64,000 bases of DNA, taken from positions 3,968,001 to 4,032,000 of the forward strand of contig OY782041.1 of NCBI GenBank assembly GCA_963677595.1. Direction: 5' to 3'. The stretch comes from Spirochaetia bacterium (GTDB lineage: Bacteria; Spirochaetota; Spirochaetia; CAKZLE01). Positions 3,297-42,179 of the stretch are shown here, one piece after another. The notes beneath the pieces are model-generated. The model saw only the letters and a list, made by a program, of their open reading frames with translations. It was not told the DNA's origin and ran no database searches. Every line of letters begins with the position of its first letter. The stretch's first letter is position 1. The position numbers were made by a program, and so were the translations under genes.

Positions 3297-3327
3297 ATAT
3301 TTCAGTTCCTCCGCATCTTCTAATATA

Positions 3328-4548: not shown

Positions 4549-4608
4549 CCTATATCTCTCCTGATTCTGTTATATTGTTATAGTCACGTATGACGTTACG
4601 TCCATCTG

Positions 4609-5943
4609 TTACACCAGTGAATCCACCCGTTCCCAGACTCTTTCAGCTGACTGTGCGGCATCCGCATAGACCTTCTTCACATCGAAGGGGAACTCCCTGT
4701 TTCTCATGACGAACCTCCCGTTCACCATCACGCTGTTCACACTACCGGACCCGAGCCCGAATGCGATATGACCCGCGATGTTATCAGCGACGATCGGGGT
4801 CGGTGAGGCGTAGTCGCTGAGCACCAGGTCTGCCTTGTACCCCGGTGCGACCCGCCCGAAGCTCGATCCAAAATAACGCTTCAGGATCTCGTTGCCGCGA
4901 GTCAGGGCTGTGAGGAAGTCTCCCGGCCACCAGGGGCCGCCTGCATCGCGGTGCTTGAAGAAGGCGAACTTGAGCTCCTCGAACATGTCAGCCCCGATCC
5001 CGTCGGTTCCGAGGACCAGGTTCCTGATCTTCGGGAGGTTCCTGTTGTAGCCGACATGGTTGTTCATGTTCGACCTCGCGTTATGGGCAAGGAATGCATC
5101 CCGCTCATTGAACAGGGCTATCTCATCTTCTGAGAGGAAGATCCCGTGAACGAGGATGGTCTTGTCATCAAGGAGCCCGAACTCATCGAGCCGCCTCACG
5201 ATATCCTTCCGGTACTGGTGGTGTGACCAGGAGACATCATAGAGGTCTTCTGCAACATGGAGGTGCATGCCCCTACCTGTCTCCTTCACCGCTCCTGCCA
5301 TCAGCTCGAGCCCCTCATCCGAGATCGTGAAGGGTGCGTGGCCGCCGATTGCTGCCTCGACGAGATAGGGACTCTTGGGGTCGTTCCGGTCAGCCTCGAC
5401 CTCACGGGCGAAGGCGATGTTCTCCTCGACCCCGGCCTTCAGCTCTGCTGAACCGCCGTTGCGGTCGGTCACCTCATAGCAGGTCATGCCGCGCAGGCCG
5501 GTCTCCTCGAACCCCCGCTTGATCTGGTGCAGGGATCCCCGGATGTAGTTCGGGCTTGCATGATGGTCGATCACGGCAGTGGTACCGGCCTTGATCGCGT
5601 CGATGGAGCAGATCATCGAGGAGTAGTAGGTCGACTCCTCATCGAGGGCCCGGTCCATCCTCCACCAGAGGTTCTGCAGTGTGGAGATGAAATCAGGGGA
5701 CGGCGGTATGGATGCCGTGATCCCCCTCGAGAGACCTGAATAGTAGTGATGGTGGGAACAGACCATGCCAGGATGCACGATCCTCCCACCCGCTTCGATA
5801 AGCTCATCAGCTTCCACCCCTGCACCGGCACCCGGACCGACAGCGGTGATGAGGTCATCGTCAATGACGATATCTACAGCCTCTGTCACTGAACAGGGGG
5901 AGAACTCCACCAGGGTAGCATTTCTAATTACTGTCTTTGCCAT
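4609..5943 (-). CDS. ssnA: SsnA-family amidohydrolase
   Basis: CSHHHYYSGLSRG, DHHASP, HNARSNMNN and GTDGIGADM motifs. Confidence 0.9.
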   Translation of the reverse strand: MAKTVIRNATLVEFSPCSVTEAVDIVIDDDLITAVGPGAGAGVEADELIEAGGRIVHPGMVCSHHHYYSGLSRGITASIPPSPDFISTLQNLWWRMDRALDEESTYYSSMICSIDAIKAGTTAVIDHHASPNYIRGSLHQIKRGFEETGLRGMTCYEVTDRNGGSAELKAGVEENIAFAREVEADRNDPKSPYLVEAAIGGHAPFTISDEGLELMAGAVKETGRGMHLHVAEDLYDVSWSHHQYRKDIVRRLDEFGLLDDKTILVHGIFLSEDEIALFNERDAFLAHNARSNMNNHVGYNRNLPKIRNLVLGTDGIGADMFEELKFAFFKHRDAGGPWWPGDFLTALTRGNEILKRYFGSSFGRVAPGYKADLVLSDYASPTPIVADNIAGHIAFGLGSGSVNSVMVNGRFVMRNREFPFDVKKVYADAAQSAERVWERVDSLV

Positions 5944-5944
5944 A

Positions 5945-8900
5945 TCACTCTCCTACGGGACCGAGCAGGAAGCCGTAGTACCCGATGATCGTCTCGACCA
6001 GGGCGGCAGCCTGCTCCTCGATATCTGCATCGACCCTGCCGTCAGGGCCTATCCCTGCCTGGGAGACCTCTCCAGCGAGTCGCAGCGTCAGGACTCCGTT
6101 TTCCAGGAGCATCCCGTCATTCTCCGAGCTGCGGAAGTCATCCTCCCTGCTGAAGACCGTGAACTTATCGGTATAGGGACGTCCTTCCCAGGGGCAGAAG
6201 GTCGCACAGTTCCCGCACTCATTGCAGTAGGCGTCGATATGGACGATCTGGTAGGGGTTATCGAAGAGCCCGGTTTCCCGGACATCGATCGCCATGTTCG
6301 CCCGGTTCGGGCATACTTCCACGCACTTGTTGCAGATATAGCTGCATTCGAGGCAGCGTCTTGCCTCGATCCGGCCGAACTCCGCATCACTGATGCCAGG
6401 CCCGGCTGCTTCCAGGAGCACACCCTTCTTTTCCGTGATCTCACCGAAGAAGGCATCCTCAGCCTCCTCGATCCCGGCAGCCTCTTCTTCGGAGAGTTCC
6501 TCGAACTCATCTTCATGATCGTGATCGTGATCATGCTCCTCCTCAGGACCAAGGATGCTGTCTATGGCAGCTTCCACCGCCTTCCTGGCACTTGCGATGC
6601 ACTGTACGACGGTCGAGGGACCGCTCTGTGCGTCACCGATCATGTAGACCCCTTCTGTCTCTGTCTGGAGGGTATCGTCATCGACGATCGCCCATCCCTT
6701 GGGATTCACCGATATGCCCATTCCTTCGAGTGCGGCCGTATCGACATGTTCGCCGATCGCGGTGATCATGGTATCGACATGCAGGGAGACCGTCTTCTCT
6801 GTCGGTACCGGTCTCCTCCTGCCGCTGGAATCGGGCTCCCCGAGCTCCATCACCCTGCAGGTGAGCTCACCATCGGGGGTGAGGGATTCTGGGTTCGTGA
6901 GGAAGCTGAAGACCGCACCGTCTGAGATCGCGTTCTCATACTCCTCGAGGTCTGCGGGCATCTCCTTCTTCGTCCTCCGGTAGAGGACGTTCACGCTCTC
7001 CACCCCGTCGATCGTGAGGGCTGCCCTCGCACTGTCCATGGCAGTGTTGCCGCCGCCGATGACCGCTACATGCTTCCCGAGGCTCAGGGATGAAGGGTCC
7101 TTCCGGTAGGTCCCCAGGAGATCGAGGGCCTCGATGACCCTGCTCCTATCGCCTTCGAGCGGGATGGGGTTATCCTTCTCCGCACCCACGGCTACGAAGA
7201 TGTGGTCGAAGCCCTTTCCCTTGAGGGAACTGATGGTGATCTCCTCAGGTTCTGCCCCGAAGACGAAATTCACGCCATGTTTCCTGATGAACTCTATATC
7301 GGCCTCGATGGCCTCGACCGGGAGCCTGAAGCCCGGGATCACATGCCGTACGACACCCCCGGCACTCTCCTCACGCTCGAAGACAGTGACGACGAACCCG
7401 GCCCGTGCCAGGAAGTAGGCTGCGGAGAGCCCGGCGGGACCTGCCCCGATCACCGCAGCCTGGAAGTCACTCTTGAACGGTGCTTCCCAGCTCTCGATAT
7501 ACTCCTCGAATCCGTTGTCCACGGCGATGCGCTTCATCTCACGGATCTGCACAGCCCCCTCGTAATCGAGCCTGGTGCAGTTGTACATGCACTGGTGGTC
7601 GCAGATGTGACCGGTGATGTTCGGGAGCGCGTTCTTGTCATAGATGACCGACAAGGCCTGGGCATAGTCTCCCTCACCCACGAGGTAGAGGTATTCCGGT
7701 ACGTCCTGCCCGATCGGGCAGGCAACCGTGCAGGGTGCGACATAACAGTCGAACAGCGGCAGCGGTGCCCCGGTCGTGATCCTGTCGGTACCCCGGTAAT
7801 CCTTCGTAGCGTAATCGGCACTCACGGCTTCCGATGCGAGGGCTTCGAGCTTCACGAGGTCTATCGAATCCGCATCCCAGCCTTCGGCGGCCTCGCAGAT
7901 CTCAGCGATCTGCTTCATGCGCACATATCCGCCGGGCTTGAGCATCTCCGTGGCCATGGTGATCGGGTGGATCCCCGTCTCGAAGAGCTTCTGTATGTTC
8001 CCGGCATTCGCACCACCGGAATAGGAGATCGGCAGGCTGCCGTCAAATTCACAAGAAAGTTTGTATGCGAGGTTGACGCTCAGCGGGAAGAGGGCCCTTC
8101 CCGACATGTACATCTCCTCACCCGGGAGTTCACCCTGGTCATTCACTGAGCCGAGGGTATTGGTCAGCTTGACACCGAACTTCCGCCCCTGCTCCTTCGC
8201 AAGTGCTCTGAGACGTGTCAGCATAGCGACCGCATCGGGGTACTGCAGGTCATGATCGAAGGACTCCCTCTTCAGGTGGAGGTACTCATAGCCGAGACCG
8301 TCGAGGGTCTCCCTGACGAAGTCATACCCCAGGAGGGTCGGGTTCAGCTTCACGAAGGTGTCGATCTGCTTCTCTGCAAGCATGTAGGAGCAGATGGCCT
8401 CGATCTCGGCAGGGGGGCACCCATGCATGGTGGAGAGGGTCACTGACGGTGAGACCGTCCGGCTGATCCGGCTGCCGATACCCTTCAGGAGGGCATAATC
8501 TATCCCCTCACCCATCCCGTCGAGGAACTCCCCCTCACCGATGAGCTGCTCGAGCTCCTCTATATAGGAAGAGAACAGCTCATTCTTCGATGAGTCGAGC
8601 ATCGAGTCGATATAGGTCTGCATCTTAGCCGTCTTGATCCCCTCGAGGTCATAGCCAACGCTCATGTTGAAGATGAAGGAGGGCTCGGCTACCTGCTCCC
8701 CGGTAAGTACCTCTTCTAAGAGGTGGAGGATGATCCACGCCTTGATATACTCATCATACGCCTTCTCAAGGGTGTACTCGGTGGACCATTCCACATTATA
8801 CGCCTCATCCCTGGCATCGATGCACGGCTTGTCGATCTCAAGGGTATCAAGCTTCTGGACGGTCTTCAGTTCCATGAACCGACCGCCTGCAAGATAGGAT

Positions 8901-9112
8901 GTGATGATATTCTGTGCCAGCTGGGTATGGGGACCCGCAGCAGGACCTACCGGGGTGGAACAGTGCTGGTTGAGTACCTGTACCTTCCGTCCCGTCGTCT
9001 TCTCGAAGAACTGTTCCCTGTCGATACCGAAGATCGATTGGTTAGCCATGAACTCGGCACTCATCCTGCCGATCAGTTCCCGGAAAGGGACAGGTCTCAT
9101 ACTATCACCCAT
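5945..9112 (-). CDS. ygfK: YgfK flavin/FeS oxidoreductase (putative selenate reductase / purine-pathway reductase)
   Basis: GPAAGPHTQLAQNI, DEAYNVEWSTE, STMHGCPP and GEEMYMSG motifs, a GAGPAG Rossmann fold and a C-terminal ferredoxin (CNECGNC). Start at MGDSMRP behind a GGAG SD. Confidence 0.93.
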   Translation of the reverse strand: MGDSMRPVPFRELIGRMSAEFMANQSIFGIDREQFFEKTTGRKVQVLNQHCSTPVGPAAGPHTQLAQNIITSYLAGGRFMELKTVQKLDTLEIDKPCIDARDEAYNVEWSTEYTLEKAYDEYIKAWIILHLLEEVLTGEQVAEPSFIFNMSVGYDLEGIKTAKMQTYIDSMLDSSKNELFSSYIEELEQLIGEGEFLDGMGEGIDYALLKGIGSRISRTVSPSVTLSTMHGCPPAEIEAICSYMLAEKQIDTFVKLNPTLLGYDFVRETLDGLGYEYLHLKRESFDHDLQYPDAVAMLTRLRALAKEQGRKFGVKLTNTLGSVNDQGELPGEEMYMSGRALFPLSVNLAYKLSCEFDGSLPISYSGGANAGNIQKLFETGIHPITMATEMLKPGGYVRMKQIAEICEAAEGWDADSIDLVKLEALASEAVSADYATKDYRGTDRITTGAPLPLFDCYVAPCTVACPIGQDVPEYLYLVGEGDYAQALSVIYDKNALPNITGHICDHQCMYNCTRLDYEGAVQIREMKRIAVDNGFEEYIESWEAPFKSDFQAAVIGAGPAGLSAAYFLARAGFVVTVFEREESAGGVVRHVIPGFRLPVEAIEADIEFIRKHGVNFVFGAEPEEITISSLKGKGFDHIFVAVGAEKDNPIPLEGDRSRVIEALDLLGTYRKDPSSLSLGKHVAVIGGGNTAMDSARAALTIDGVESVNVLYRRTKKEMPADLEEYENAISDGAVFSFLTNPESLTPDGELTCRVMELGEPDSSGRRRPVPTEKTVSLHVDTMITAIGEHVDTAALEGMGISVNPKGWAIVDDDTLQTETEGVYMIGDAQSGPSTVVQCIASARKAVEAAIDSILGPEEEHDHDHDHEDEFEELSEEEAAGIEEAEDAFFGEITEKKGVLLEAAGPGISDAEFGRIEARRCLECSYICNKCVEVCPNRANMAIDVRETGLFDNPYQIVHIDAYCNECGNCATFCPWEGRPYTDKFTVFSREDDFRSSENDGMLLENGVLTLRLAGEVSQAGIGPDGRVDADIEEQAAALVETIIGYYGFLLGPVGE

Positions 9113-9154
9113 AATCACTCCTCCATAACCGTAATTCAATAAACCCTATCCTTC

Positions 9155-9182
9155 ATTGTACTGTCAAAAGAACTTCTGTCAA
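9155..9182 (-). promoter_or_regulatory. Sigma70-like promoter of the ygfK-ssnA-ygeY-xdh operon
   Basis: Minus strand TTGACA-16 bp-TACAAT. Confidence 0.6.
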
Positions 9183-9371
9183 TAAAAAGTTGCAACAATC
9201 TGCAACAATTGATATATTTGCATAAAATAAATATTGACTTTACAACCCAATTGGTGTAAAAGGTAAGAATTGGTGGAATATTCTACGTATTCGTAAATAT
9301 TCTATTTCATATTTGGTTTTTTACGAAATCGTAATATAATAAAAACTGATATCTGAATTGGAGGAGAAGTT

Positions 9372-10835
9372 ATGATAGATCTGACCATGCATGAGGAGAT
9401 CCGAGAGAAGAACATCCAGCGCTGCCGAGAGAAAGGGATCATCTATCCCACGTTCGCACAGATGAAGGACCCGTCACTGATCCCGACCCAGCTTGAGGAG
9501 AAGCTCCACAGCACCGGGCTCTGGGATGTCGATCCCGTGAACCTCTTCAGGATCACCTGGAAGAACGAGCCCGCCGACCAGGGCGGACGGCACCACGGGG
9601 TAAACTACCTCGAGGTCCCCAGGGAGATCACCGGCACGAAGGCACGGATCTTCGCACTCGTCGGGAAATGGTTCCCCACCGGTGCCCACAAGGTTGGAGC
9701 GACCTACGGCTGTCTTGCACCCGCACTCACGACCGGTAACTTCGACTCGACCACACAGAAGGCTGTATGGCCCTCGACCGGTAACTACTGCCGGGGCGGC
9801 GCCTACAACTCAGCCCTGCTCGGCTGCGACTCGATCGCCATCCTTCCCGAGGAGATGAGCAAGGAACGGTTCGAGTGGCTCAAGTCTGTAGCCGGCGAGG
9901 TCATCGCTACCCCGGGCTGCGAGAGCAACGTCAAGGAAATCTTCGACAAGTGCCATGAGCTCGATGCTGAGCGAGGGGACAACATCGTCATCTTTAACCA
10001 GTTCGACCAGTTCGGCAACTACCTGTGGCACTACTCCGTGACCGGTTCAGCGATCGAGGAGTTCCTCACCGCTGAAGGGATCACTGCCGGCCAGCTCAAG
10101 GGCTATGTCTCAGCTACCGGTTCAGGCGGTACGCTCGCTGCAGGGGATTACCTCAAGCAGAAGTACCCGGAAGTCAAGATCGGCGCAGCCGAGGCACTCC
10201 AGTGCCCGACCCTGCTGCGCAACGGGTTCGGCGGCCACCGGATCGAGGGCATCGGCGACAAGCATGTCCCCTGGATCCATAACGTGAAGAATACCGACAT
10301 GGTCCTCGCCATCGATGATAACGACTGCATGGACCTCCTGAGGCTCTTCAACGAGGAGAACGGCCAGAAGGAACTTGCAGAGGACGGCGTGACCAAAGAG
10401 TTCATAGAGAAACTGGACCTCTTCGGCATCTCGGGCATCGGCAACCTGCTCGGCGCCATCAAGATGGCCAAGTTCTACGAGATGGAAGAGGATGACGTGA
10501 TCGTTACCGTCCTGACCGACTCTGCCGAGATGTACGTCTCCAGGCTCGCAGAGATGAACGAGGCACGGGGCGAGTTCACGGTCAAGGATGCTGCAGGCAC
10601 CTACCAGGCGTCCCTGATGCACCAGACGATGGAGAATGCCAAGGAACTCGGGTACTATGACCGACTCGCGATCCACAACCTCAAGTACTACACCTGGATC
10701 GAGCAGCAGGGCAAGGAGATCGATGAGATCAACGCACAGTGGTATGACCGGGAGTACTGGACACGGATCCAGGCCCTCGAACCGCAGATCGATGCACTCA
10801 TCAATGAGTTCAACGAGAAGGTAGGACTTCTCTAG
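9372..10835 (+). CDS. PLP-dependent fold-type II enzyme (cysteine synthase/Trp synthase beta-like, uncharacterised subfamily)
   Basis: FPTGAHKVGA (Schiff-base Lys), PSTGNY, ATGSGGT and HRIEGIG motifs. GAGGAG SD. Confidence 0.85.
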   Translation: MIDLTMHEEIREKNIQRCREKGIIYPTFAQMKDPSLIPTQLEEKLHSTGLWDVDPVNLFRITWKNEPADQGGRHHGVNYLEVPREITGTKARIFALVGKWFPTGAHKVGATYGCLAPALTTGNFDSTTQKAVWPSTGNYCRGGAYNSALLGCDSIAILPEEMSKERFEWLKSVAGEVIATPGCESNVKEIFDKCHELDAERGDNIVIFNQFDQFGNYLWHYSVTGSAIEEFLTAEGITAGQLKGYVSATGSGGTLAAGDYLKQKYPEVKIGAAEALQCPTLLRNGFGGHRIEGIGDKHVPWIHNVKNTDMVLAIDDNDCMDLLRLFNEENGQKELAEDGVTKEFIEKLDLFGISGIGNLLGAIKMAKFYEMEEDDVIVTVLTDSAEMYVSRLAEMNEARGEFTVKDAAGTYQASLMHQTMENAKELGYYDRLAIHNLKYYTWIEQQGKEIDEINAQWYDREYWTRIQALEPQIDALINEFNEKVGLL

Positions 10836-10856
10836 GGAAGCACGCAAACCATGAAG

Positions 10857-10884
10857 GACCGGGCAGAGACTGCCCGGTCTCTTT
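10857..10884 (+). terminator. Stem-loop, probable intrinsic terminator or attenuator
   Basis: gaccgggcag-aga-ctgcccggtc followed by tcttt. Confidence 0.6.
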
Positions 10885-10905
10885 CGTTGTAAGGAGACGA
10901 GACAA

Positions 10906-12126
10906 ATGAGATTCAGCTACAGGTGTTCGGACTGCGGCACACGGTATGAGACAGAGGAGCTCATGTATCGCTGCCCCGCATGTGATACAGACCCGGGAGA
11001 CAGGTTCCAGAGCGGGAACCTGATCGTCGAACTCGAGCTAAAGGGACTGCGGGAACTCGCGAAGAAGGACCATGTGACCCCCTTCGACTTCTTCCCCTAC
11101 ACCGTTCCCTCCCCGGAAGCCTATCCCGTCGGGAACACCCCCCTTTCAGTATCACCACGGCTCTCCGCGGCTTACGGCTTGAAGAACCTTCGGTTCAAGC
11201 TCGAGGGGCAGAACCCTTCAGGGTCCTTCAAAGACCGTGCCTCCCAGCTCATAGCAGCCCAGGCACAGGCCCTCGGGGAGCAGAAGGTCGTACTCGCCTC
11301 AACCGGGAATGCAGGATCCGCCATGGCCTGCGCCGGGGCAGCCTACGGGTTGGAGATCGTGCTCTTCGTACCGGCATCAGCCCCGGTGAACAAGCTGATG
11401 CAGTCGGTCCTCTACGGCGCCCATGTGATCCCGGTGAACGGGACCTATGATGATGCCTTCGCCCTCTCTATCGCCTATTCGCAGGAGTTCGGCGGGATCA
11501 ACCGGAACACGGCCTACAACCCCATGACCATCGAGGGCAAGAAGAGTGTGAGTATCGAGCTGTTCGAGCAGCTCGGCAGGCGACTGCCGGATGCGGTCTA
11601 TGTCCCGGTCGGGGACGGGGTCATCCTCTCCGGCGTCTACAAGGGGTTCAAGGACCTCATGGATGCCGGCATCACCGATCACGTCCCTGCCATCATCTGC
11701 GTGCAGTCCTCGGGAAGTGACGCGATCAGCCGAGCCTGGAGTACCGGTGAGTTCAAGTCCCTCAAAGAGGCAACCACGACCGCCGATTCCATCTCGGTCG
11801 CCTCCCCTGCGAACGGCAGGATGGCTGTGGATTATATCAAGGCCTCGGGAGGCTGGGCGACGGTCATCAGCGATGAGGACATCTCCGAAGCACAGCTCGA
11901 GTTGGCGCATGATGCGGGCATGTTCGCAGAACCTGCAGCATCCGCTGCCTGGGCCGGTGTCCGTGCTGACAGGGAGAAGCTCCTCGAGACCTTCGGCCCC
12001 GAGGCTGAGGTCACGGTCCTGCTCACCGGTACGGGGTTCAAGGACATGAAGTCCTTCGACGGCAAGGTGTCCATCCCCCCTTCGATCGAACCGACAGTCG
12101 AGGCCATGCGGGTCTATATGAAGTAG
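10906..12126 (+). CDS. Threonine synthase-family PLP enzyme
   Basis: N-terminal CxxC..CxxC, NPSGSFKDR, ASTGNAG, VPVGDG, EPAASAA and LTGTGFKD motifs. Confidence 0.85.
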   Translation: MRFSYRCSDCGTRYETEELMYRCPACDTDPGDRFQSGNLIVELELKGLRELAKKDHVTPFDFFPYTVPSPEAYPVGNTPLSVSPRLSAAYGLKNLRFKLEGQNPSGSFKDRASQLIAAQAQALGEQKVVLASTGNAGSAMACAGAAYGLEIVLFVPASAPVNKLMQSVLYGAHVIPVNGTYDDAFALSIAYSQEFGGINRNTAYNPMTIEGKKSVSIELFEQLGRRLPDAVYVPVGDGVILSGVYKGFKDLMDAGITDHVPAIICVQSSGSDAISRAWSTGEFKSLKEATTTADSISVASPANGRMAVDYIKASGGWATVISDEDISEAQLELAHDAGMFAEPAASAAWAGVRADREKLLETFGPEAEVTVLLTGTGFKDMKSFDGKVSIPPSIEPTVEAMRVYMK

Positions 12127-30645: not shown

Positions 30646-30674
30646 TTGACAAACACCCTGTTCCATGGTACATT
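30646..30674 (+). promoter_or_regulatory. Sigma70 promoter upstream of the riboswitch
   Basis: TTGACA-17 bp-TACATT with an extended -10 TG. Confidence 0.7.
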
Positions 30675-30691
30675 TCCCATACACAACCTAT

Positions 30692-30786
30692 TACTCCGAG
30701 TCGTTTCTCCTACAGCATATGCCATGGATTTGCGACCGATAGGGTACAGCAGGAAACGACTGTACCTCCCGTATTGGAAAGGAGAC
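30692..30786 (+). ncRNA. Moco RNA motif riboswitch, P3-less (Tuco/tungsten-cofactor-associated) variant
   Basis: P1 ctcc/ggag sequesters the SD; P2 gtcgt/gcgac; P4 gggtacag/ctgtacct with GGAAAC in the loop; hallmark 3' CCTCCCGTATTGGAAAGGAG. No P3 between P2 and P4. Confidence 0.85.
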
Positions 30787-30789
30787 CGT

Positions 30790-31224
30790 ATGAAGAATCA
30801 CCGAAAGACCATGGTAGTGCTGATCTGTATCGCCCTGCTGTGCAGTATGCCCCTCTTCGCAGGAGGCAAGCCCCTGCAGATCTCTGCATCAGACCCTGCA
30901 GACTGCGGATCAGGCGTTGCCCTGAATGGCGTCATATCCCTGACATTCTCGAACAATGTCGTGAACTTCTCCGTGAGTGAGTCGAACAAGGCCTGCATCA
31001 CGCTGCAGACCACCTATGGGGAACCGGTACCGATAGAGATCCTCATGGCTGATGACCAGGTCGAGCCCGAGAAGAAGCGTGATGTCACCGTCAAGCCCCT
31101 GGAGAACCTGAAGGCATTCACCTCCTATGAGCTGGTCATCTCTGGTGCGTTCCAGGCAAAGAACGGCTCAGCTCTCGAGACTGACCAGGTCATCTACTTC
31201 ACGACCGGGTCCAAGACCCAGTAA
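30790..31224 (+). CDS. Exported Ig-like (Big_5/SbsA-type) domain protein
   Basis: Signal peptide, SDPAD..V.LN..ISLTFSNNV, VKP..NL...TSYELVIS and terminal YFTT motifs. ATG directly follows the riboswitch. Confidence 0.8.
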   Translation: MKNHRKTMVVLICIALLCSMPLFAGGKPLQISASDPADCGSGVALNGVISLTFSNNVVNFSVSESNKACITLQTTYGEPVPIEILMADDQVEPEKKRDVTVKPLENLKAFTSYELVISGAFQAKNGSALETDQVIYFTTGSKTQ

Positions 31225-31226
31225 CC

Positions 31227-32252
31227 ATGAAAGCCAGTCCCCGCGTCAGGGCAGTCGCGCTGCCGGTCATCTTCATCAGTCCCCTGCTCTGTGTGCTTGC
31301 GGCACTCTTCTGGGGGCGGTATCCTCTTTCCCCAGCTGAGGTCCTGGCTGTCCTCATGCGGCACCTGCCTTTCGTAGACTCGTCGGGCCTCAAGGAGACG
31401 ACCATCGCCGTGGTCGAGATCATACGATTTCCCCGGGCGATCTTCGCGGTCCTTGTCGGCGGGTCCCTCGCGGTCTCAGGGGCTGCGTTCCAGGGCCTCT
31501 TCCGGAACCCACTCGTCTCTTCAGGCATGCTCGGGGTAAGTTCCGGGGCAGGCTTCGGGGCAGCACTGGCCATCCTGCTGTTCAACCAGGGGTACCTGGT
31601 CTATGTCTTCGCCTTCGTCTTCGGGTTCGGGGCTGTAGGCCTTGCCTACATGATCGGCCGCATCTACCATACCACGACCTCGGTCACCCTCGTGCTCGGC
31701 GGGGTGGTCATAGGGTCCATCTTTTCCGCCCTCACCTCCTTCGCGAAGTTCGTCGCTGACCCCTATAACCAGCTGCCGACCATCGTGTTCTGGCTCATGG
31801 GATCCCTGGCATCCGCACAGCGCATGCAGATCCTCATCGCCGCGATTCCCATGCTGGTCGGCACCATCGGGCTGATGCTCTTCCGCTGGAGACTGAACAT
31901 CCTCTCCATGGGGGAGCGTGAGAGCCAGGCCATGGGCATCAACCTCCATGCGAACCAGCTGTTGATCGTCTTCTTCGCCACCTTGGCTACCGCAGGGGCG
32001 GTCAGCCTTGCAGGGGTGATCGGATGGGTCGGACTGATCATCCCCCATATGGGGCGCATGATCGTCGGAAGCGACAACCGCATCCTCATTCCCGTGAGCT
32101 TCTGCCTCGGGGCCTCCTTCCTCATCCTCGTCGACAGCCTCGCACGGACCCTGGTAGGCAGCGAGATCCCGCTCGGCGTCCTTACCGCCCTCGTCGGCGG
32201 CCCCTTCTTCATCTACCTGCTCAAGGAGACCAAGGCAAGGGGGTGGCAATGA
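31227..32252 (+). CDS. FecCD/BtuC-type ABC transporter permease
   Basis: IRFPR, QGLFRNPLVS, GVSSGA, FWLMGSL, GWVGLIIPH and EIPLG motifs. Confidence 0.92.
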   Translation: MKASPRVRAVALPVIFISPLLCVLAALFWGRYPLSPAEVLAVLMRHLPFVDSSGLKETTIAVVEIIRFPRAIFAVLVGGSLAVSGAAFQGLFRNPLVSSGMLGVSSGAGFGAALAILLFNQGYLVYVFAFVFGFGAVGLAYMIGRIYHTTTSVTLVLGGVVIGSIFSALTSFAKFVADPYNQLPTIVFWLMGSLASAQRMQILIAAIPMLVGTIGLMLFRWRLNILSMGERESQAMGINLHANQLLIVFFATLATAGAVSLAGVIGWVGLIIPHMGRMIVGSDNRILIPVSFCLGASFLILVDSLARTLVGSEIPLGVLTALVGGPFFIYLLKETKARGWQ

Positions 32253-33067
32253 GCCCGCTGCTCGCGATGGAGAACGGTTCCTTCTCCTATACTCCTCAGA
32301 AGAGGATCTACTCACAGCTCAGCTTCTCGGTGGAACCGGGAGAGGTGCTCTGTATCCTCGGCCCGAACGGCTGCGGGAAGACCACCCTGCTTGACAACCT
32401 CCTCGGGTATTACCCGCTGGATGAGGGGAGCATCCTGATCGACGGCGTAGATTCCTCCGCGATGAGTGCCCCGCAGCGAGCCCGGAAGATCGCCTATGTC
32501 CCCCAGATACACCAGAAGACCTTTCCCTATACCGTCGAGCAGGTGATCCTCATGGGCAGGACACCGCACCTGCCGTTCCATACCGGGCCGGTTCGGTCAG
32601 ACATAGAGAAAGTGAATGAGGTCATCGACCTGCTGAACCTCGAGAGGCTCCGTCACCAGGAGTATACCCGTCTCTCCGGGGGAGAGACCCAGCTGGTGCT
32701 GATCGCCAGGGCCCTCGTACAGGAGAGCCAGGTGCTGGTCATGGACGAGCCGACCAACCACCTCGATTATACCAACGAGCTGATCATCCTTGAGACTATG
32801 AAAGGGTTGATACGGGATCGCGGCCTGTCCATCATCATGGCGACCCATGTCCCGAACCATGCTTTCTTTTTCGAGAACCATGCCATTCCCGTCGTGGTCG
32901 CCCTGATGCAGCAGGACAGGGGATTCCGCTGTTACGGCTCTCCCGAAGCGGTACTGACGCCTGAGAACCTCGGGGAGGTCTATCATGTGGATACCTGCAT
33001 ACTCGAGTATGCGGGTATTAGTACAGAACAGCAGCTGCGGCACATCGTTCCGCTGCGATTGAGGTAA
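32249..33067 (+). CDS. ABC transporter ATP-binding subunit (FecE/BtuD-type)
   Basis: GPNGCGKT, LSGGE and MDEPTNHLD motifs. ATGA overlap with the permease. Confidence 0.92.
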   Translation: MSPLLAMENGSFSYTPQKRIYSQLSFSVEPGEVLCILGPNGCGKTTLLDNLLGYYPLDEGSILIDGVDSSAMSAPQRARKIAYVPQIHQKTFPYTVEQVILMGRTPHLPFHTGPVRSDIEKVNEVIDLLNLERLRHQEYTRLSGGETQLVLIARALVQESQVLVMDEPTNHLDYTNELIILETMKGLIRDRGLSIIMATHVPNHAFFFENHAIPVVVALMQQDRGFRCYGSPEAVLTPENLGEVYHVDTCILEYAGISTEQQLRHIVPLRLR

Positions 33068-33073
33068 CTATCC

Positions 33074-34162
33074 ATGCACAGAACACGAATATTGATCATA
33101 CTAACCGCATTCATTTTCTCCCTTTCCCTGGTATCTGCCCAGGGCCAGGTTGAAGGAAGCCTACTGCCGGTACAGGCCGAACGGACGGTCATCGACTGCT
33201 TCGACCGTACCGTCTCCCTGCCTGAGACCATCGACCGGGTAGCCTGTCTCTATGCCTTCAGCACGCATGTCATGACGATGCTCGGGGAGGATGACAAGAT
33301 CGTTGCCGTGGTGGAGGGCTCCAAACGAGATATGCTGCTTAACGAGGTCTCTCCTTATATCGGGGAGGCAGCGACCCCCTCGGACAGCGGCATAATCAAC
33401 ATCGAGGAGCTCCTTGCCACTGACCCTGACCTCGTATTCCTGAAAGGAGAGACTGCCCTGCTGGCCGAGGAGACCGCCAAGCTCGAGCTCTTCGGCATCC
33501 CCTACGTTGTGATCGACTTCACCACCATAGCCGAGCAGATGCGGGCGATCGAGGTCATTGGGGATGTGATGGGCGAAAGCGATAGAGCTGCAGCGTACCT
33601 CAGGTATTACCAGCGAATCATCGATGAGACGCTTGCACGGACGAGCAGCCTGTCAGAGGATGAGAAACACCGGGTCTACCATTCGGTGAACGAGGCGACC
33701 CGTACCGACGCGGCAGGCACCCTCACCGCGGAGTGGACGCAGATCGCGGGAGCGATCAACGTCTCGGTGGGTTCTGACCTTCGGGTCTATGAGAACAAGT
33801 TCTATGCCTCCATCGAGCAGATCCTGCTCTGGGACCCGGAGATCATCATCTGCAACGAGTACGGCGTGGATGGGTATATCATGAATAACGAGAAGTGGCA
33901 GACGATCCAGGCAGTGAAGGACCAACTGGTCTTCAAGATCCCTACCGGCATCTCACGGTGGGGCCATCCCGGCGGGATGGAGACACCCCTGGCGATCCTT
34001 TGGACGGTGGGGACGCTCTATCCGGAACTCAGTGAGGATATAGACATGTTCGGGATCACCAATGACTATTACAACGATTTCTTCGACTACCAGATCAGCG
34101 ATGAGCTAGTTGAACGCATGCTCTCAGGCGGGAGGATGCGGATGGCCAAGGAGGATATGTGA
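33074..34162 (+). CDS. Helical-backbone (Peripla_BP_2) substrate-binding protein
   Basis: Signal peptide, INIEELLATDPDLV, SIEQILLWDPEII and AVK motifs. Confidence 0.88.
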   Translation: MHRTRILIILTAFIFSLSLVSAQGQVEGSLLPVQAERTVIDCFDRTVSLPETIDRVACLYAFSTHVMTMLGEDDKIVAVVEGSKRDMLLNEVSPYIGEAATPSDSGIINIEELLATDPDLVFLKGETALLAEETAKLELFGIPYVVIDFTTIAEQMRAIEVIGDVMGESDRAAAYLRYYQRIIDETLARTSSLSEDEKHRVYHSVNEATRTDAAGTLTAEWTQIAGAINVSVGSDLRVYENKFYASIEQILLWDPEIIICNEYGVDGYIMNNEKWQTIQAVKDQLVFKIPTGISRWGHPGGMETPLAILWTVGTLYPELSEDIDMFGITNDYYNDFFDYQISDELVERMLSGGRMRMAKEDM

Positions 34163-34163
34163 G

Positions 34164-34901
34164 ATGAGAAGATTCTTACTCTGCATCGATGATACCGACA
34201 ACCTGGGCACTCCCGGCAGCGGCCATATCCTCAATGATATCTGCCTGCACCTCCAGGAGAGGGGATTGGCCCGTGGATCGAGGATCAGCCGGCACCAGCT
34301 CTTCGTGCATCCCGATGTGCCCTATACCAGCCACAACTCCTCTATGTGCACGATCCTCACCGGCATCCATGACGAACAGGCGGTGATCTCCGAGGTCGAG
34401 ACGGAACTTCGCGAACGGGCTGCGGAGGGTTCGGATCCCGGGATCTGCTTCACTGCCTGGGATCAGATCCGCAGTCCTGAGCTGCTCATCGATTACGGGC
34501 GCAGGGCAAAGCGAGAGGTCCTCTCCAAGGGAATAGCCTATGAGACGGCGAAGGAATGCGGCCTCTACCTGAACGAACTCGGCGGCACGGGGGACGGCGT
34601 CATCGGGGCTGTCGCCGGCATCGGCCTGCGCCTCAGCGGGACTGACGGAAGGTTCAGGGGGAAGCTCCCCTTCTCCGCTGCCGGACAGCCCTGCAGAGCT
34701 GGCGACTTCGTATGCCTCGATGAGGTCGATGAACTGCGGTGCGCGGTTACAGGAAAACTCCTGGACGAGAGCGACCTGGTCACCTGGCTTCCCGAGATCA
34801 AGACCGTCTTATATGGCCATAAGTCAGTGCTCCCGGTCCTGCCGGATGGAGATCACTGGCGGGTCATGGACAGGGTGGAACTGAAGGCACGGTACAACTA
34901 G
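34164..34901 (+). CDS. TiaS/DUF1743-like catalytic-domain protein lacking tRNA-binding domains
   Basis: CIDDTD, RHQLFVHPDVPYTSHNSSMC, EGSDPG and GGTGDGVIGAVAGIG motifs resemble the TiaS N-terminal ATP-binding domain. Confidence 0.7.
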   Translation: MRRFLLCIDDTDNLGTPGSGHILNDICLHLQERGLARGSRISRHQLFVHPDVPYTSHNSSMCTILTGIHDEQAVISEVETELRERAAEGSDPGICFTAWDQIRSPELLIDYGRRAKREVLSKGIAYETAKECGLYLNELGGTGDGVIGAVAGIGLRLSGTDGRFRGKLPFSAAGQPCRAGDFVCLDEVDELRCAVTGKLLDESDLVTWLPEIKTVLYGHKSVLPVLPDGDHWRVMDRVELKARYN

Positions 34902-35305
34902 AGAAGCTCCCGCAGACCAAGCAGCGTCTCATCCTTCATAGCCTCCAGGAACTCACGCAACCCCTTGAATGCAGACTCCCGGTCCTTGCCCTCCACGGCG
35001 AGGAAGAGAATCGAGTCGTTCCTGTCGATCGTACCGATCGCGTGGACCGCATAGAGGCTGTTCAGGTCATACCGTTCAGCTATCTCCACGGCTTTCGAGG
35101 TGAGAATCGCTTCCGCATCGGGCTGCACCTTGTACAGCTCGATCCTGCTGTAGTCTGCGACCTGCTTCCCGGGGTACTTCGCCTTCCCGTGGTGGACGAG
35201 GATGGTCCCGGTCGAATCAGCCGGTGATTCGTGGAATGCCCTATACAGCTCGACATGGTCGAACCCCTCTGCAAGCTGAAATGATACCTTCTGCCTTGTT
35301 TCCAT
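34898..35305 (-). CDS. Divergent MoaE-like (molybdopterin synthase large subunit-like) protein
   Basis: Aligns by eye to MoaE (G.ILVHHG.AK, VH.IG.I...DSILFLAV...DRESAF...FLE.MK). Confidence 0.65.
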   Translation of the reverse strand: METRQKVSFQLAEGFDHVELYRAFHESPADSTGTILVHHGKAKYPGKQVADYSRIELYKVQPDAEAILTSKAVEIAERYDLNSLYAVHAIGTIDRNDSILFLAVEGKDRESAFKGLREFLEAMKDETLLGLRELL

Positions 35306-37953: not shown

Positions 37954-39111
37954 ATGATGATCAAAAGAGCTCTATCAGCAGAGCTGACTGCAGCAAGCAG
38001 GTTCTTCCCAGTCGTCACCCTGACAGGACCGAGGCAATCCGGGAAGACCACGTTGGTGCAGGAGTGTTTCCCTGAACACACCTACTGCAATCTTGAGAGT
38101 CCTGAGATCCGAATGCTTGCTGCTTCTGATCCCAGGACGTTCTTTCATACATATACTCCACCCATGATCATCGATGAGGTCCAAAGGGTTCCTGAACTGT
38201 TGTCCTGGATCCAGGTCTTCTCAGATGAGCATCAGCGTAAAGGACAGTATATCCTGACAAGAAGCAGCCAGCCCCAGCTGAACGAGGCAGCCTCCCAGTC
38301 CCTTGCAGGACGGACAGCAGTGTATCAGCTGCTGCCGCTGTCCCTCGGGGAACTGCAGGCCCATTACCATGAAACACCAATGAAAGAAGAAGTCATGGTG
38401 AACGGGTTCCTGCCCAGACTTTACCATGACAACATCCCGGCAGGCATGGTCTATTCCAGCTATTTCAGGACATATATCGAACGTGATGTCCGTTTGCTGA
38501 GTACTATAAAGAACCTCTCCCAATTTGAGCAATTCATCAAACTACTTGCCGGTAGGATCGGGCAGCTGGTGAATCTTTCTTCTTTATCCAATGACATAGG
38601 AGTATCTTCAACCACCCTTGCTTCCTGGCTATCGGTCCTTGAGGCATCGTTCATCATCTACCGGCTGCCACCGTATCACACGAACAGGAGAAAACGGCTG
38701 ACACGCTCCCCCAAGCTGTATTTCACCGAAACCGGGCTGGCAGCTTGGCTTCTCGGTATTGAGACCCCATCCCAATGCTTGAGGGATCCCCTGCTGGGCA
38801 GCCTGTTCGAGAATATGGTCGTGATGGATGCCGTGAAGCAGCAATTGAGCAGGGGGAAGGTACCCCAGCTCTCGTTCTACCGCGATGCAAAAGGCCATGA
38901 AGTAGACCTCATACTTGAGAAGCAGCGTGTACCATACCCCATTGAGATCAAGTCGGCCATGACCTGGCACGACCATTTCGCAAAAGGGATCACCTGGTTC
39001 CAGTCTGCTGAGCCTGCATCAGGCAGGGGATCTGTGATCTATTCAGGCGATCTGGAGTTCGACAGGGAATCGTATAGTATCAGGAACTTCAATTCCGAGC
39101 TCAGTGTATAG
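37954..39111 (+). CDS. AAA_14/DUF4143 ATPase
   Basis: GPRQSGKT, IIDEVQ, SLAGR, TYIERDV, PKLYF, FENMV and EVDL..IEIKS motifs. Confidence 0.9.
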   Translation: MMIKRALSAELTAASRFFPVVTLTGPRQSGKTTLVQECFPEHTYCNLESPEIRMLAASDPRTFFHTYTPPMIIDEVQRVPELLSWIQVFSDEHQRKGQYILTRSSQPQLNEAASQSLAGRTAVYQLLPLSLGELQAHYHETPMKEEVMVNGFLPRLYHDNIPAGMVYSSYFRTYIERDVRLLSTIKNLSQFEQFIKLLAGRIGQLVNLSSLSNDIGVSSTTLASWLSVLEASFIIYRLPPYHTNRRKRLTRSPKLYFTETGLAAWLLGIETPSQCLRDPLLGSLFENMVVMDAVKQQLSRGKVPQLSFYRDAKGHEVDLILEKQRVPYPIEIKSAMTWHDHFAKGITWFQSAEPASGRGSVIYSGDLEFDRESYSIRNFNSELSV

Positions 39112-39124
39112 GTACTATGTGACT

Positions 39125-39367
39125 ATGAAGATCTTCTTATCAATTCCGGATAACGTATGCAAAGAAGCGGAAAGGACTGCCAGGCAGCTTGGTCTTACGA
39201 GAGACCAGCTGTACATCAGGGCTGTCAAAGAGTTCGTTGCCCATCATCAGCGAGACACCATAACAGAGATGCTCGATAGCATCTATGCAGATAGGCCTCA
39301 AGAAGATCCTGTATCAGATTCGGGATTAGAGGCCATGAGAGAGGCAGCAGAACATGATTCTTGGTAG
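39125..39367 (+). CDS. ChpI/MazE-like ribbon-helix-helix antitoxin (orphan)
   Basis: MKIFLSIPD..AE..A..LG..R.QL...AVKEF....ITEMLDSIY and C-terminal DSW, as recalled for Leptospira ChpI. Confidence 0.75.
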   Translation: MKIFLSIPDNVCKEAERTARQLGLTRDQLYIRAVKEFVAHHQRDTITEMLDSIYADRPQEDPVSDSGLEAMREAAEHDSW

Positions 39368-39390
39368 AATCTGGTAAGCGAACCCAGTAG
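39354..39390 (+). pseudogene. Relic of a ChpK/MazF-type toxin 5' end
   Basis: Overlapping ATG gives MILGRIW*ANPV, resembling MIRGEIWW of ChpK/MazF. Premature TAA; the rest is absent. Confidence 0.55.
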
Positions 39391-39410
39391 TTAGAGCAAT
39401 ACATTCATGG

Positions 39411-40628
39411 TTAAAACAGACTGGTATCAAGCAGGAATCGACGAAGGGATACATGCCGGACTCCAGAGATGGTATCAGTGAAGTCAGGGTCCATCGTTAC
39501 CACGAATTTGGGATAGGAATCCCTGATCCGTAGAAGTGGGGAGAACTCCCTTTCAATGGTGGTCTCGTTCTCCAGCTTATATGCGACCTGGATATAGACT
39601 AGCTGATCTCTTCGCTCTGCTACGAAATCCACTTCCAACTTTCCTAGCTTTCCGATGTATACAGCGTATCCTCGTCTCACCAGTTCGAGGTAGACGATAT
39701 TCTCCAGGACACCGGATATATGATGGTCCCGATAGCCGAACAGGGCATGCTGCATACCTTGATCTGCCAGGAAATACTTCTCCTGCGTCTTGAGGATCTC
39801 TTTCCCCTGTATATCATACCGCTGTACCTTGCGAAGGATATAAGAACTGACAAGGGCATCCAGGTAGGTATAGATAGTACTGATATCAACGGACCGGTAT
39901 TGACTTTTGAAATAATCAGCGATCTTCTTCGCAGAGATCGTATGACCGATAGATTCTATGACGAATCTCATGATCCTGTTCAGGAGATCAATGTCCCGGA
40001 TCTTATAACGATGCACCACGTCCCGAAGGACGATAGAATCATAGGTATCACGCAGGATGGTATATACCACCTCTTCTTCATACTCACCCACATGGATCGC
40101 GGGAAACCCGCCTCGCCTGATAAACTTCCAAAGCAGCTCATCAGAAACCTCCTGCTCCGCTGTGCTGCGTTGGAAGTCGAGCATCTCCCGAAATGAGAGC
40201 ACCTGAATCTCTATCCGAATAAAGCGACCCGTAAGGAGGGTCGAGAGTTCAGAGGATAGGAGATGGGAGTTCGACCCACTGATGAAGATATTGACCTGAA
40301 AATCTACCATCAGGGAATTGACAGCTTCTTCCCATGAATCGACGATCTGTATCTCATCAAAGAACAGGTAGACCATCTCAGTGCGTGAGGCAAGCATGTT
40401 CGCAACATATGTATACAATGAATGTGCATCACGAAGACTGTAGTATTTCATACTCTCGAAATTGATCGATACGATCTGGTCTTCCCGAATCCCATTATCG
40501 CGCAGGTACTGCTGGGTAAGAAGCAGTAATGTGGATTTCCCACATCTACGAACTCCTGTGATCACTTTGATGAAAGGAGTTTTGATACATTGTCTGATCT
40601 TTTCCGTGTATAAAGGCCTCTCAATCAT
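39411..40628 (-). CDS. AAA_14/DUF4143 ATPase
   Basis: GVRRCGKS, FFDEIQ, SGSNS, LLTGR, GGFP, LENIVYLEL and EVDFVA..YIQVAY motifs. Confidence 0.9.
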   Translation of the reverse strand: MIERPLYTEKIRQCIKTPFIKVITGVRRCGKSTLLLLTQQYLRDNGIREDQIVSINFESMKYYSLRDAHSLYTYVANMLASRTEMVYLFFDEIQIVDSWEEAVNSLMVDFQVNIFISGSNSHLLSSELSTLLTGRFIRIEIQVLSFREMLDFQRSTAEQEVSDELLWKFIRRGGFPAIHVGEYEEEVVYTILRDTYDSIVLRDVVHRYKIRDIDLLNRIMRFVIESIGHTISAKKIADYFKSQYRSVDISTIYTYLDALVSSYILRKVQRYDIQGKEILKTQEKYFLADQGMQHALFGYRDHHISGVLENIVYLELVRRGYAVYIGKLGKLEVDFVAERRDQLVYIQVAYKLENETTIEREFSPLLRIRDSYPKFVVTMDPDFTDTISGVRHVSLRRFLLDTSLF

Positions 40629-40840
40629 ATATCGAACCTCTTTATATGATTATACTCCCAAAAACTTGAATACTATAGTACTTTGTATGGTTATACCCAT
40701 ACAAAATATGATTTTCAGTTCTATGCATCCAGTTCCAGACAGGTTATGCAACACCATACACCCCATCCACAACCTCTATGAGGAATGCCCCTTCAGGCTG
40801 GAGATGACAAATCCTGCAGACCGTAGACTCCCTTGCCTGC

Positions 40841-42127
40841 TCAGTCCCTGAGGCAGCCTATGGGGACGACCTTGACCCCATCAGGTCGGGTATAGGCGAT
40901 CTCTCCACCGGTTATGATGATCAGGGCTCCAGGTTCCCTGATAGCAGTTCCTCCCTTCTGCTGATTCACCTTACGTATGAGCCTTTCTACTTTCAGGAGA
41001 TGGGAAGCTCCTTCCTCGATCCCCCTGCTTCCCAGCTTGAATTCGATCAGGGCATATCTCCCATCGTCCAGGTGCAGGACAGCGTCAACCTCCAGGTTGG
41101 TCCGATCATGGTAATATGACAGTCTGCCTCCTGAAGAAGCTGCATATGCAGAGAGATCTCTCATACAGAGATTCTCAAAGATGAAACCGAAGGTCTCGAA
41201 GTCCTGCAGCAGCGCCTCCGGACTCAATCGAAGTGAGGCAGTCATGATGGACGGGTCTATGAACATCTTCTTTGTCGTACTGCGCATCGCTGTCTTTGAG
41301 CGAATCGCAGGATTCCAGGCGGGAACATCAGATATCACGAACAGGCGGTTCAAGGCACTCACATATTCATAGAAAGCAGATTGTGAAAGCCTGTTATTGG
41401 CATTGATATCTTCTAGAATCGTCTTATTCGAAGCGAGTGTACCGATATTCCTTGCATATGATCTCAATACGCTCTGGACCTTTCCGGGATCCCTTCTGGT
41501 ATGGTCAATCGAGGATATATCACTCTCAATGATCGAATCAACATAAGCCTTTGATACCAGCAGCTTCGCTTTATCACTGGTCTTACTGAGACTTGCAGGC
41601 CAGCCTCCCCTGCATGCAGCAAAGACCAGGTTCTCGATACTGAGTCCTGACAAGCTGCCATCTATATCATACTGCTCATCATACATGAGTTCATGTAAGG
41701 AAATAGTACCATTCGATTCCCCAGACTCGAACAGACTCATCGGGAGCATCTGAAGCCTTGCGATCCTACCTGTCCCTGAATGCATGATCTTAGATTCATC
41801 TACAGTCGTTGAACCAGTAAGGATAAACAACCCTTCCTGTCCAGCTGAATCGATGAAACTCCTCACTGCATCCCATAAAACTGGTGCCATCTGCCATTCA
41901 TCTATCAATCTCGGATATGACCCTTTCAAGAGGAGCGATGGTTTTATCTCAGCCGTGGCCAGATACCTGCTGGAAGTGTCCGGATCCTGCAGCTTCACCA
42001 TACTCTTTGCCTTCTGGCTTGCACTTGTGGTCTTGCCGCACCACTTTGGTCCTGTCAGCAAGACTGCTCCGAAAGCTTCAAGATAATCATCCAATATCGT
42101 GTCGATAATCCGCGGCAGATAGTTCAT
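40841..42127 (-). CDS. AAA/DUF4143 ATPase
   Basis: GPKWCGKT, LIDEWQ, ILTGS, HSGTGR, RGGWP, FENL and EVDAV..LIEFKLG motifs. Confidence 0.9.
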   Translation of the reverse strand: MNYLPRIIDTILDDYLEAFGAVLLTGPKWCGKTTSASQKAKSMVKLQDPDTSSRYLATAEIKPSLLLKGSYPRLIDEWQMAPVLWDAVRSFIDSAGQEGLFILTGSTTVDESKIMHSGTGRIARLQMLPMSLFESGESNGTISLHELMYDEQYDIDGSLSGLSIENLVFAACRGGWPASLSKTSDKAKLLVSKAYVDSIIESDISSIDHTRRDPGKVQSVLRSYARNIGTLASNKTILEDINANNRLSQSAFYEYVSALNRLFVISDVPAWNPAIRSKTAMRSTTKKMFIDPSIMTASLRLSPEALLQDFETFGFIFENLCMRDLSAYAASSGGRLSYYHDRTNLEVDAVLHLDDGRYALIEFKLGSRGIEEGASHLLKVERLIRKVNQQKGGTAIREPGALIIITGGEIAYTRPDGVKVVPIGCLRD

Positions 42128-42179
42128 CAGCATCCTCCCCTGTATGTAGTATACATCAGAATGCTATTCCATCAAACAG

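Follow-up and report, generated by a model that had tools for sequence, protein, structure and literature searches.

We identify, in a 64,000-nucleotide stretch of a Spirochaetia bacterium genome (GenBank assembly GCA_963677595.1, contig OY782041.1; the whole stretch is hereafter the window), an operon of five genes led by a riboswitch of the molybdenum/tungsten cofactor (Moco/Tuco) family. It encodes an exported immunoglobulin-like (Ig-like) Big_5 protein, a type II ATP-binding cassette (ABC) importer with its substrate-binding protein, and a stand-alone relative of the kinase domain of TiaS, the archaeal agmatidine synthetase. Comparison with related loci establishes this unit as a conserved import-and-processing module linked to tungsten (W) and molybdenum (Mo). 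As to its cargo, the sequences point to the W- or Mo-pyranopterin itself, imported for cofactor salvage, with the chances that this is correct about evenly balanced.

The riboswitch, the operon and its kinase

The unit consists of the following features.

30646..30674, + strand: sigma70-type promoter candidate, TTGACA-17-TACATT, with an extended -10 (TG); a consensus match only
30682..30801, + strand: Moco/Tuco riboswitch RF01055, P3-less tungsten-associated type; its P1 contains, in the 3' strand, the Shine-Dalgarno sequence AAGGAG (30779-30784)
30790-31224, + strand: exported Big_5 Ig-like protein, 144 aa (Pfam)
31227-32252, + strand: type II (FecCD/BtuC) ABC permease, 341 aa (Pfam; best solved relative MolB, HI1471)
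32249-33067, + strand: ABC ATPase, 272 aa (family search)
33074-34162, + strand: helical-backbone substrate-binding protein (Peripla_BP_2), 362 aa (Pfam; a subfamily of its own)
34164-34901, + strand: stand-alone TiaS kinase-domain protein, 245 aa, a predicted small-molecule kinase (no Pfam hit)

The first-pass annotation of this DNA had described a promoter, a P3-less riboswitch with the Shine-Dalgarno sequence in P1, five genes and a converging moaE-like gene, a layout that proved accurate on re-examination. It had also proposed a scan with the Rfam Moco model; cmscan places RF01055 at 30682-30801 with 72.1 bits (gathering score 36, E 1.8e-15), the sole Rfam hit in the window. The alignment spans model positions 1-135, a full-length match, and in it the P3 hairpin of the aptamer is shrunk to a few bases, which defines the P3-less type. 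In the passages of Regulski 2008 (PMC2408646) drawn on here (all papers cited below are likewise drawn on in part), P3-less RNAs are tied to tungsten users by genomic correlation, and the downstream genes are moa, mod, tup and Mo/W enzymes.

The GGAG at 30781-30784 is both the 3' strand of P1 and the Shine-Dalgarno sequence, and the ATG at 30790 comes 5 nt later. Because the Shine-Dalgarno sequence lies within P1, translation is predicted to be off when the ligand is bound or plentiful, so that the cofactor would probably act as an OFF signal. Minimum free energy folding misses the aptamer (z -1.35). The promoter candidate ends about 8 nt upstream of the aptamer; its consensus match alone is weak (4 such sites against 2.2+/-1.5 in shuffled sequence), and it is credible because of its placement just before the aptamer. 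The five genes are tightly packed, with intergenic gaps of -4 to +6 nt, and the FecCD permease, ATPase and Peripla_BP_2 protein within one operon identify a type II ABC importer.

The fifth gene product lacks a Pfam match and gives weak matches to the C-terminal part of methanogenesis marker protein 11 (Mmp11; E 7e-13) and to TiaS (E 3e-4). It misses the NCBIfam cut-off for TiaS (19.5 against 600 bits, at a length of 245 aa against about 420) and that of TIGR03280 for Mmp11 (48 against 256 bits, over model positions 132-282 only). Its AlphaFold model (predicted local distance difference test score, pLDDT, 93.5) convincingly matches TiaS alone (Foldseek E 8e-10; Z 21.7, root-mean-square deviation 2.1 over 156 residues), and the profile alignment to TiaS ends at residue 157, thus covering the N-terminal kinase domain only. 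With archaeal TiaS and Mmp11 the protein shares the kinase-domain fold and the motifs DDTD, Thr or Ser at the position of TiaS Thr18 (T/S19), Asn, PG and GxIGA; RHQL, TSHNS and DPG are also among its motifs, and the DDTD-type motif is present in 80 of 84 homologues. Unlike TiaS, it is bacterial and tied to importers, and some 260 residues of TiaS have no counterpart in it. The tRNA-binding part is absent, and in its place stands an 83-aa C-terminal domain (pLDDT 86), for which Foldseek returned no PDB match at E<=0.001 (best Z 2.2), a result that does not imply a new fold. A role in tRNA modification was rejected on this domain content. The TiaS domain has been described as a dual RNA/protein kinase domain (PMC11938285). 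For the 245-aa protein, a small-molecule kinase would be the simplest reading, and both that activity and its substrate are named here as predictions.

The family has at least 1135 homologues. Of the 120 best, those that bear a name are labeled hypothetical proteins, and the nearest homologue, from a Spirochaeta metagenome-assembled genome, is 52% identical. In the ESM Atlas, a homologue query returned clusters labeled hypothetical or 'DNA-binding', with TiaS_TCKD on 13-17% of members. The kinase occurs in 2 of 61 relatives of this genome, itself included. A plasmid collection yielded three distant matches that carry no useful annotation; a distant haloarchaeal plasmid homologue stands divergently beside a FecCD-type operon (L185:4797-8411). 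Elsewhere, three paralogous kinase genes lie in tandem ahead of XdhC, and one of them has altered motifs (L076:6181-8452, L077:8995-11310).

Conservation of the cassette

Kinase loci were collected from GTDB genomes, about half of the collection being scanned; the best 80 of 544 confirmed loci were analyzed, a sample biased to close relatives whose members are not independent. The kinase gene adjoins a FecCD importer at 41 of the 80 loci (hereafter cassettes), an energy-coupling factor (ECF) module at 14, an S-component at five and a TonB receptor alone at two. The window's five-gene order recurs at 29 loci, one of them cut by a contig end. Cassette hosts belong to the Bacillota, Spirochaetota, Thermodesulfobacteriota, Atribacterota and Sumerlaeota.

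Moco RNAs, found with a nucleotide profile seeded on Rfam hits, occur at 37 of the 80 loci; an Rfam check was positive for 7 of 9 in an unscreened subset, for all 10 profile-positive loci checked and for none of 8 profile-negative ones. No length excess at the P3 position is seen in 67 of 68 profile hits. The first-pass annotation wished to see surveyed how frequently the unit follows such RNAs: 22 of 34 cassettes are riboswitch-led, once seven of the 41 with truncated upstream DNA are dropped. At 11 of the 80 loci the RNA stands directly before the kinase gene. ModE-type boxes, sought by regular expression before riboswitch-less cassettes, appear in 2 of 29 regions.

Two further samples give a concordant picture. 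The binding protein was found in 23 of 301 genomes, from which 19 stretches were fetched and 17 core loci retained; the kinase is adjacent at 15 of these 17 and a riboswitch leads at 10. In Clostridia the kinase was found in 13 of 399 genomes, with 10 of 11 new loci beside an importer and an RNA at 5 of 11, several stretches being cut short. Eighty metagenome loci display the same layouts, including a TonB receptor together with FecCD. In a quick tree of the kinase the importer type switches 16 times; its backbone is poorly resolved, and no direction of transfer is claimed.

The 4.3-Mb genome that contains the window holds three Moco RNAs. In addition to that of the cassette, one leads tupABC-like genes (C1:1016090-1018791, L087; TupA model 218 bits, below the 400 cut-off). 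The third leads a sugar-type ABC system (C1:271771-276794, L086) composed of a CUT1 sugar-type binding protein, a 460-aa Cys-less lipoprotein of the PF00174 family (E 4e-18) and a double permease; this system is another candidate for cofactor import, from a different transporter class. Moco RNAs are absent from the four remaining FecCD operons of the genome, one of which has a cobalamin riboswitch.

These data bear on the annotation as iron transport. FecCD and Peripla_BP_2 names suggest iron, the binding protein has PDB relatives that bind iron or nickel, and a 2024 paper on Eubacterium limosum (PMC11725836) placed P3-less riboswitches before two FecCD-type importers, fetABC1 and fetABC2, with Shine-Dalgarno sequestration proposed for the latter, and called them iron transporters; on that view the tungsten cofactor would control iron import in order to supply Fe-S-rich tungstoenzymes. 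We consider this highly improbable for the operon described here. A switch with its Shine-Dalgarno sequence in P1 would stop iron uptake when cofactor is plentiful, and the accessory genes are of Moco type. No Fur-like box was found before the operon (at best 9 of 19 positions agree with the Fur consensus, Fur being the iron regulator covered). The E. limosum operons also differ: their order is binding protein, permease, ATPase, one ends in xdhC, the passages drawn on list neither a Big_5 nor a TiaS-like kinase gene, and the iron reading given there comes without a ligand test. The tungsten-limitation data of that paper carry no weight here, since its text gives for fetABC1 both up-regulation and the absence of a significant change, and the columns of its Table S4 are ambiguous. 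The view that the unit is W/Mo-linked rather than an iron importer, already suggested in the first-pass annotation, is supported by the riboswitch-led cassettes, the missing Fur-like box and the four FecCD operons that lack a Moco RNA.

Candidate cargoes of the importer

The pyranopterin reading assigns each component a step. Outside the cell, Big_5 and the binding protein would take hold of a W (or Mo) pyranopterin that had been trimmed and probably dephosphorylated; the type II ABC pump would bring it in, and the TiaS-type enzyme would restore its terminal phosphate. In clostridial variants an exported pyrophosphatase would trim dinucleotide forms of the cofactor before import. Such a pathway would be a cost-saving supplement for cells rich in W/Mo enzymes and not a rescue for auxotrophs, since the hosts keep de novo synthesis. 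A layout of importer and kinase under the cofactor's own riboswitch, as in salvage modules, is present; the kinase activity and the cargo are predicted.

Most ECF S-components and TonB receptors carry vitamins and chelates, and an arrangement of capture protein, exported hydrolase, importer and kinase resembles salvage of NAD or cobamides. The systems for cobamide (BtuB/BtuFCD/CobU), NAD (NadN/PnuC/NadR) and heme capture (Isd, Shr) offer likenesses in surface capture, an optional exported hydrolase, an importer, a kinase in the cytoplasm and a cofactor-sensing riboswitch, although the parts of the cassette are not their orthologues. A vitamin-type cargo is favored because the importer changes, the kinase gene being paired with three unrelated types, whereas kinase and regulation are constant, and because tungstate is already provided for by TupA-like proteins in most hosts. 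The wider proposal is that the cofactor is a shared community vitamin, which anaerobes of at least five phyla capture with sulfite-oxidase and Ig folds, trim, import through interchangeable ABC, ECF or TonB systems and restore with a new family of TiaS-type kinases; this we regard as plausible but somewhat short of probable. A bulky organic cargo with a co-encoded processing enzyme, as the first-pass annotation suggested, fits the neighbor genes and the swapped importers.

The accessory genes include possible capture proteins. Big_5 homologues conserve the motifs FxKNV..N, ADDQ and KxG, and most carry an additional linker and membrane anchor; a profile search of the PDB gave nothing significant. 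The Big_5 protein may act in capture or relay. Its pairing with the binding protein receives weak support from complex prediction, in which the pair scores 0.60 against 0.01 for the best control, with 86% of contacts shared between runs and a partner pLDDT of 92 or more; scores of 0.60 or lower were given to 18 of 157 solved complexes and to both of the two mismatches that passed among 215. One genome carries a natural fusion of Big_5 and binding protein (L220).

Exported, Cys-less lipoproteins of the Oxidored_molyb family (PF00174, sulfite-oxidase fold, a fold that binds Moco) occur at 13 of 196 kinase or binding-protein loci and often head the cassette where Big_5 would stand. In one clostridial clade of six loci, a single operon joins FMN_bind and PF00174 lipoproteins, DUF364, the cassette, an ECF module with a YkoE-type S-component and an exported lipoprotein of the nucleotide pyrophosphatase/phosphodiesterase family (PF01663, E 1e-16; L234:2344-14001, also L172, L233, L235, L236, L241). 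The S-component is homologous to a deltaproteobacterial one (E 1e-6 to 1e-8), and the riboswitch is present in the two loci of the clade whose upstream DNA was Rfam-checked.

Some of these accessory genes would also suit another organic precursor, such as cyclic pyranopterin monophosphate (cPMP) or a breakdown product, another pterin, or a vitamin of flavin or thiamine type, phosphorylated and in some hosts oxidized after import. The clostridial operon opens with an FMN_bind lipoprotein and has an S-component of YkoE type. Fifteen of 18 longer kinase homologues (P0123-P0137) are fused to a flavoprotein resembling type 2 glycerol-3-phosphate oxidase (GlpO), through a small 4-Cys domain in the two sequences read; two singleton fusions (P0121, P0122) were excluded as possible gene-calling artefacts. 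With a glycerol-3-phosphate oxidase-like partner, such a fusion suits an alcohol kinase, a point that counts for the pyranopterin reading as well. Yet no cassette is led by a riboswitch of flavin mononucleotide, thiamine pyrophosphate or folate type in the Rfam scans, and hosts make cPMP themselves, so we give this explanation little credence. The 4-Cys domain also occurs as a free neighbor gene at seven GTDB loci.

A second route for free oxyanions is a further alternative. Haemophilus influenzae MolBC-A (HI1470-1472), which carries molybdate and tungstate, belongs to the same transporter class and supplies the closest solved relatives of both permease and binding protein; oxyanion transport is a common target of Moco RNAs (PMC2408646). 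An importer of free tungstate or molybdate of this type would leave the enzyme to a separate step of cofactor assembly. The cassette differs from MolBC-A in its extra capture protein, its kinase and its riboswitch control. A 2026 preprint names K221, R264, Y114 and Y301 as pocket residues of MolA. In a sequence alignment (offset +21) their counterparts are T216, a gap, E126 and H298, none of the four identical, although R295 could substitute; the subfamily instead retains R85, E207, R210, N261, S294, R295 and H298. As a control, a riboswitch-less FecCD permease of the same genome likewise matches MolB first (E 7e-58). The argument from nearest relatives is weakened because of this paralogue and the loss of the four pocket residues. 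TupA is found in most hosts, this genome has both tupABC and modABC, and the kinase beside the binding protein at 15 of 17 loci would be left unexplained; uptake of free oxyanion is thus distinctly improbable.

Among 50 of 79 possible hosts (41 cassette, 9 other), AOR is present in 47 (against 121 of 201 genomes in a phylum sample) and a TupA-like match in 45, none above the model's high cut-off. In the present genome, matches number 9 for the AOR family, 11 for the XDH family and one for the DMSOR family, and a moeA-moaA-moaC-MOSC-mogA cluster is present; moeA, however, has a single match, and MoaA is short at 266 aa. Its modABC genes sit in an apparent nif cluster, judged by eye. The idea in the first-pass annotation that hosts might lack de novo genes did not survive these counts, and auxotroph rescue was rejected, because moaC is in 50 of 50 hosts and the binding protein in none of 15 AOR-positive, moaC-negative genomes.

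Such a background would suit a bulky non-pterin form of W or Mo (a chelate, thiometallate or polyoxometallate) beyond the reach of TupA and ModA, with the ATP-using enzyme freeing or activating the metal for de novo synthesis. This alternative accounts for moaC in all 50 hosts and for kinase genes inside moa/moe clusters (L006, L043, L110). TonB receptors suit chelates, and an anion would fit the Arg, Lys and His residues conserved in Big_5 and the binding protein. It also agrees with neighbors such as a Mo-storage-like kinase-fold protein (10 loci), TupA (14 loci), MOT1 and the DUF364 'heavy-metal chelation' proteins. It leaves the vitamin-type ECF S-components, the sulfite-oxidase-fold lipoproteins and the exported pyrophosphatase without an obvious role, and genes for chelator synthesis are not recurrent in the neighbor clusters. 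We judge it unlikely, though far from negligible. Sister type II importers that lack the kinase stand near Moco RNAs at two loci (L228, whose RNA has P3, and L229), with DUF364 and methyltransferase genes.

A number of observations count against pyranopterin as the cargo. The presence of moaC in all 50 hosts compares with 146 of 201 in the phylum sample, and the absence of the binding protein from the 15 moaC-negative genomes compares with 11 of 106 having both genes (Fisher p 0.36, a test of low power); the unit accompanies synthesis rather than replacing it, and therefore metal supply fits at least as well. An importer is lacking near the kinase at 18 of the 80 loci, a detectable riboswitch is lacking from 12 of 34 cassettes, and the flavoprotein fusions show that the kinase may act outside W/Mo metabolism. 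MolB is the top PDB match of the permease (E 2.6e-65, ahead of HmuU at 3e-47), and MolA is the best single-sequence match of the binding protein (E 9e-29) and second by profile. The PF00174 lipoproteins may not bind pterin, because their matches are partial and the metal-binding Cys is absent. The pyrophosphatase operon represents one event, being confined to one clade, and the window's cassette has neither that enzyme nor a PF00174 lipoprotein. Finally, free Moco is unstable and, according to the passages of a 2021 review drawn on here (PMC9026282), only Caenorhabditis elegans takes it up as a nutrient, by a route described there as unknown.

Neighboring genes, prior descriptions and significance

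A divergent moaE-like gene converges on the operon with a 4-bp overlap.

34898-35305, - strand: divergent MoaE-like protein, 135 aa (PF02391, E 1.5e-15)
35365-35337, - strand: promoter candidate of the moaE-like gene

The gene is the genome's only MoaE match. It scores 57.8 against a Pfam cut-off of 23.4, but only 22 against 175 bits for the NCBIfam equivalog, and canonical copies score about 130 bits in the family search against about 57 for this one. Its inclusion in the unit, as first annotated, was abandoned: the gene accompanies none of the 41 cassettes and shares only the same metabolism. A missing canonical moaE was also rejected as the driver of the association, as a canonical copy occurs in 4 of 50 hosts and the phylum baseline is equally low (10 of 201). 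At Desulfuromonadia-type loci (L011, L012, L016, L020, L034), riboswitch-led units contain or adjoin divergent MoaE-like genes. These genes suggest a W-linked, non-canonical MoaE group.

Elsewhere in the window, positions 1155-12126, 27 kb upstream of the cassette, encode a xanthine dehydrogenase-family subunit with YgfK/SsnA/YgeY-like neighbors, which we take to be a molybdoenzyme cluster. Positions 37954-42133 hold three genes close together for what are presumably AAA+/DUF4143-type ATPases.

Open-licence articles in PMC and bioRxiv yielded no account of the cassette or of the kinase family, and no description of a salvage module for Mo/W-pyranopterin; subscription papers and RegPrecise lay outside this search. 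The passages drawn on from PMC12584684, PMC13397572 and PMC6313347 contain nothing on the kinase family. A 2025 paper names Tup, Wtp and Mod as the only W/Mo uptake systems, again in the part cited, and the downstream genes named in the cited part of Regulski 2008 do not include the five-gene cassette, although its supplements may list such operons. The first-pass annotation had seen here a candidate for an undescribed system. That holds for the cassette and kinase as far as this literature extends, whereas a riboswitch before a FecCD importer had already been published in E. limosum. The riboswitch and the transporter class thus belong to known kinds, which apparently does not hold for the kinase family, the capture proteins or the likely cargo.

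If the pyranopterin reading is true, bacteria would be able to salvage a cofactor for which de novo synthesis has been regarded as the only source. The cassette offers concrete candidates for the proteins of bacterial Moco uptake, comprising binding protein, S-component, receptor and kinase. For the TiaS kinase fold, and possibly for Mmp11 too, a function unconnected with tRNA becomes likely. The published interpretation of tungsten-riboswitch importers as iron transporters is put in question. Even under the explanations that invoke metal only, syntrophs, gut clostridia and organisms that reduce sulfate or metals would have in the cassette an unrecognized means of W/Mo supply, annotated until now as iron transport.

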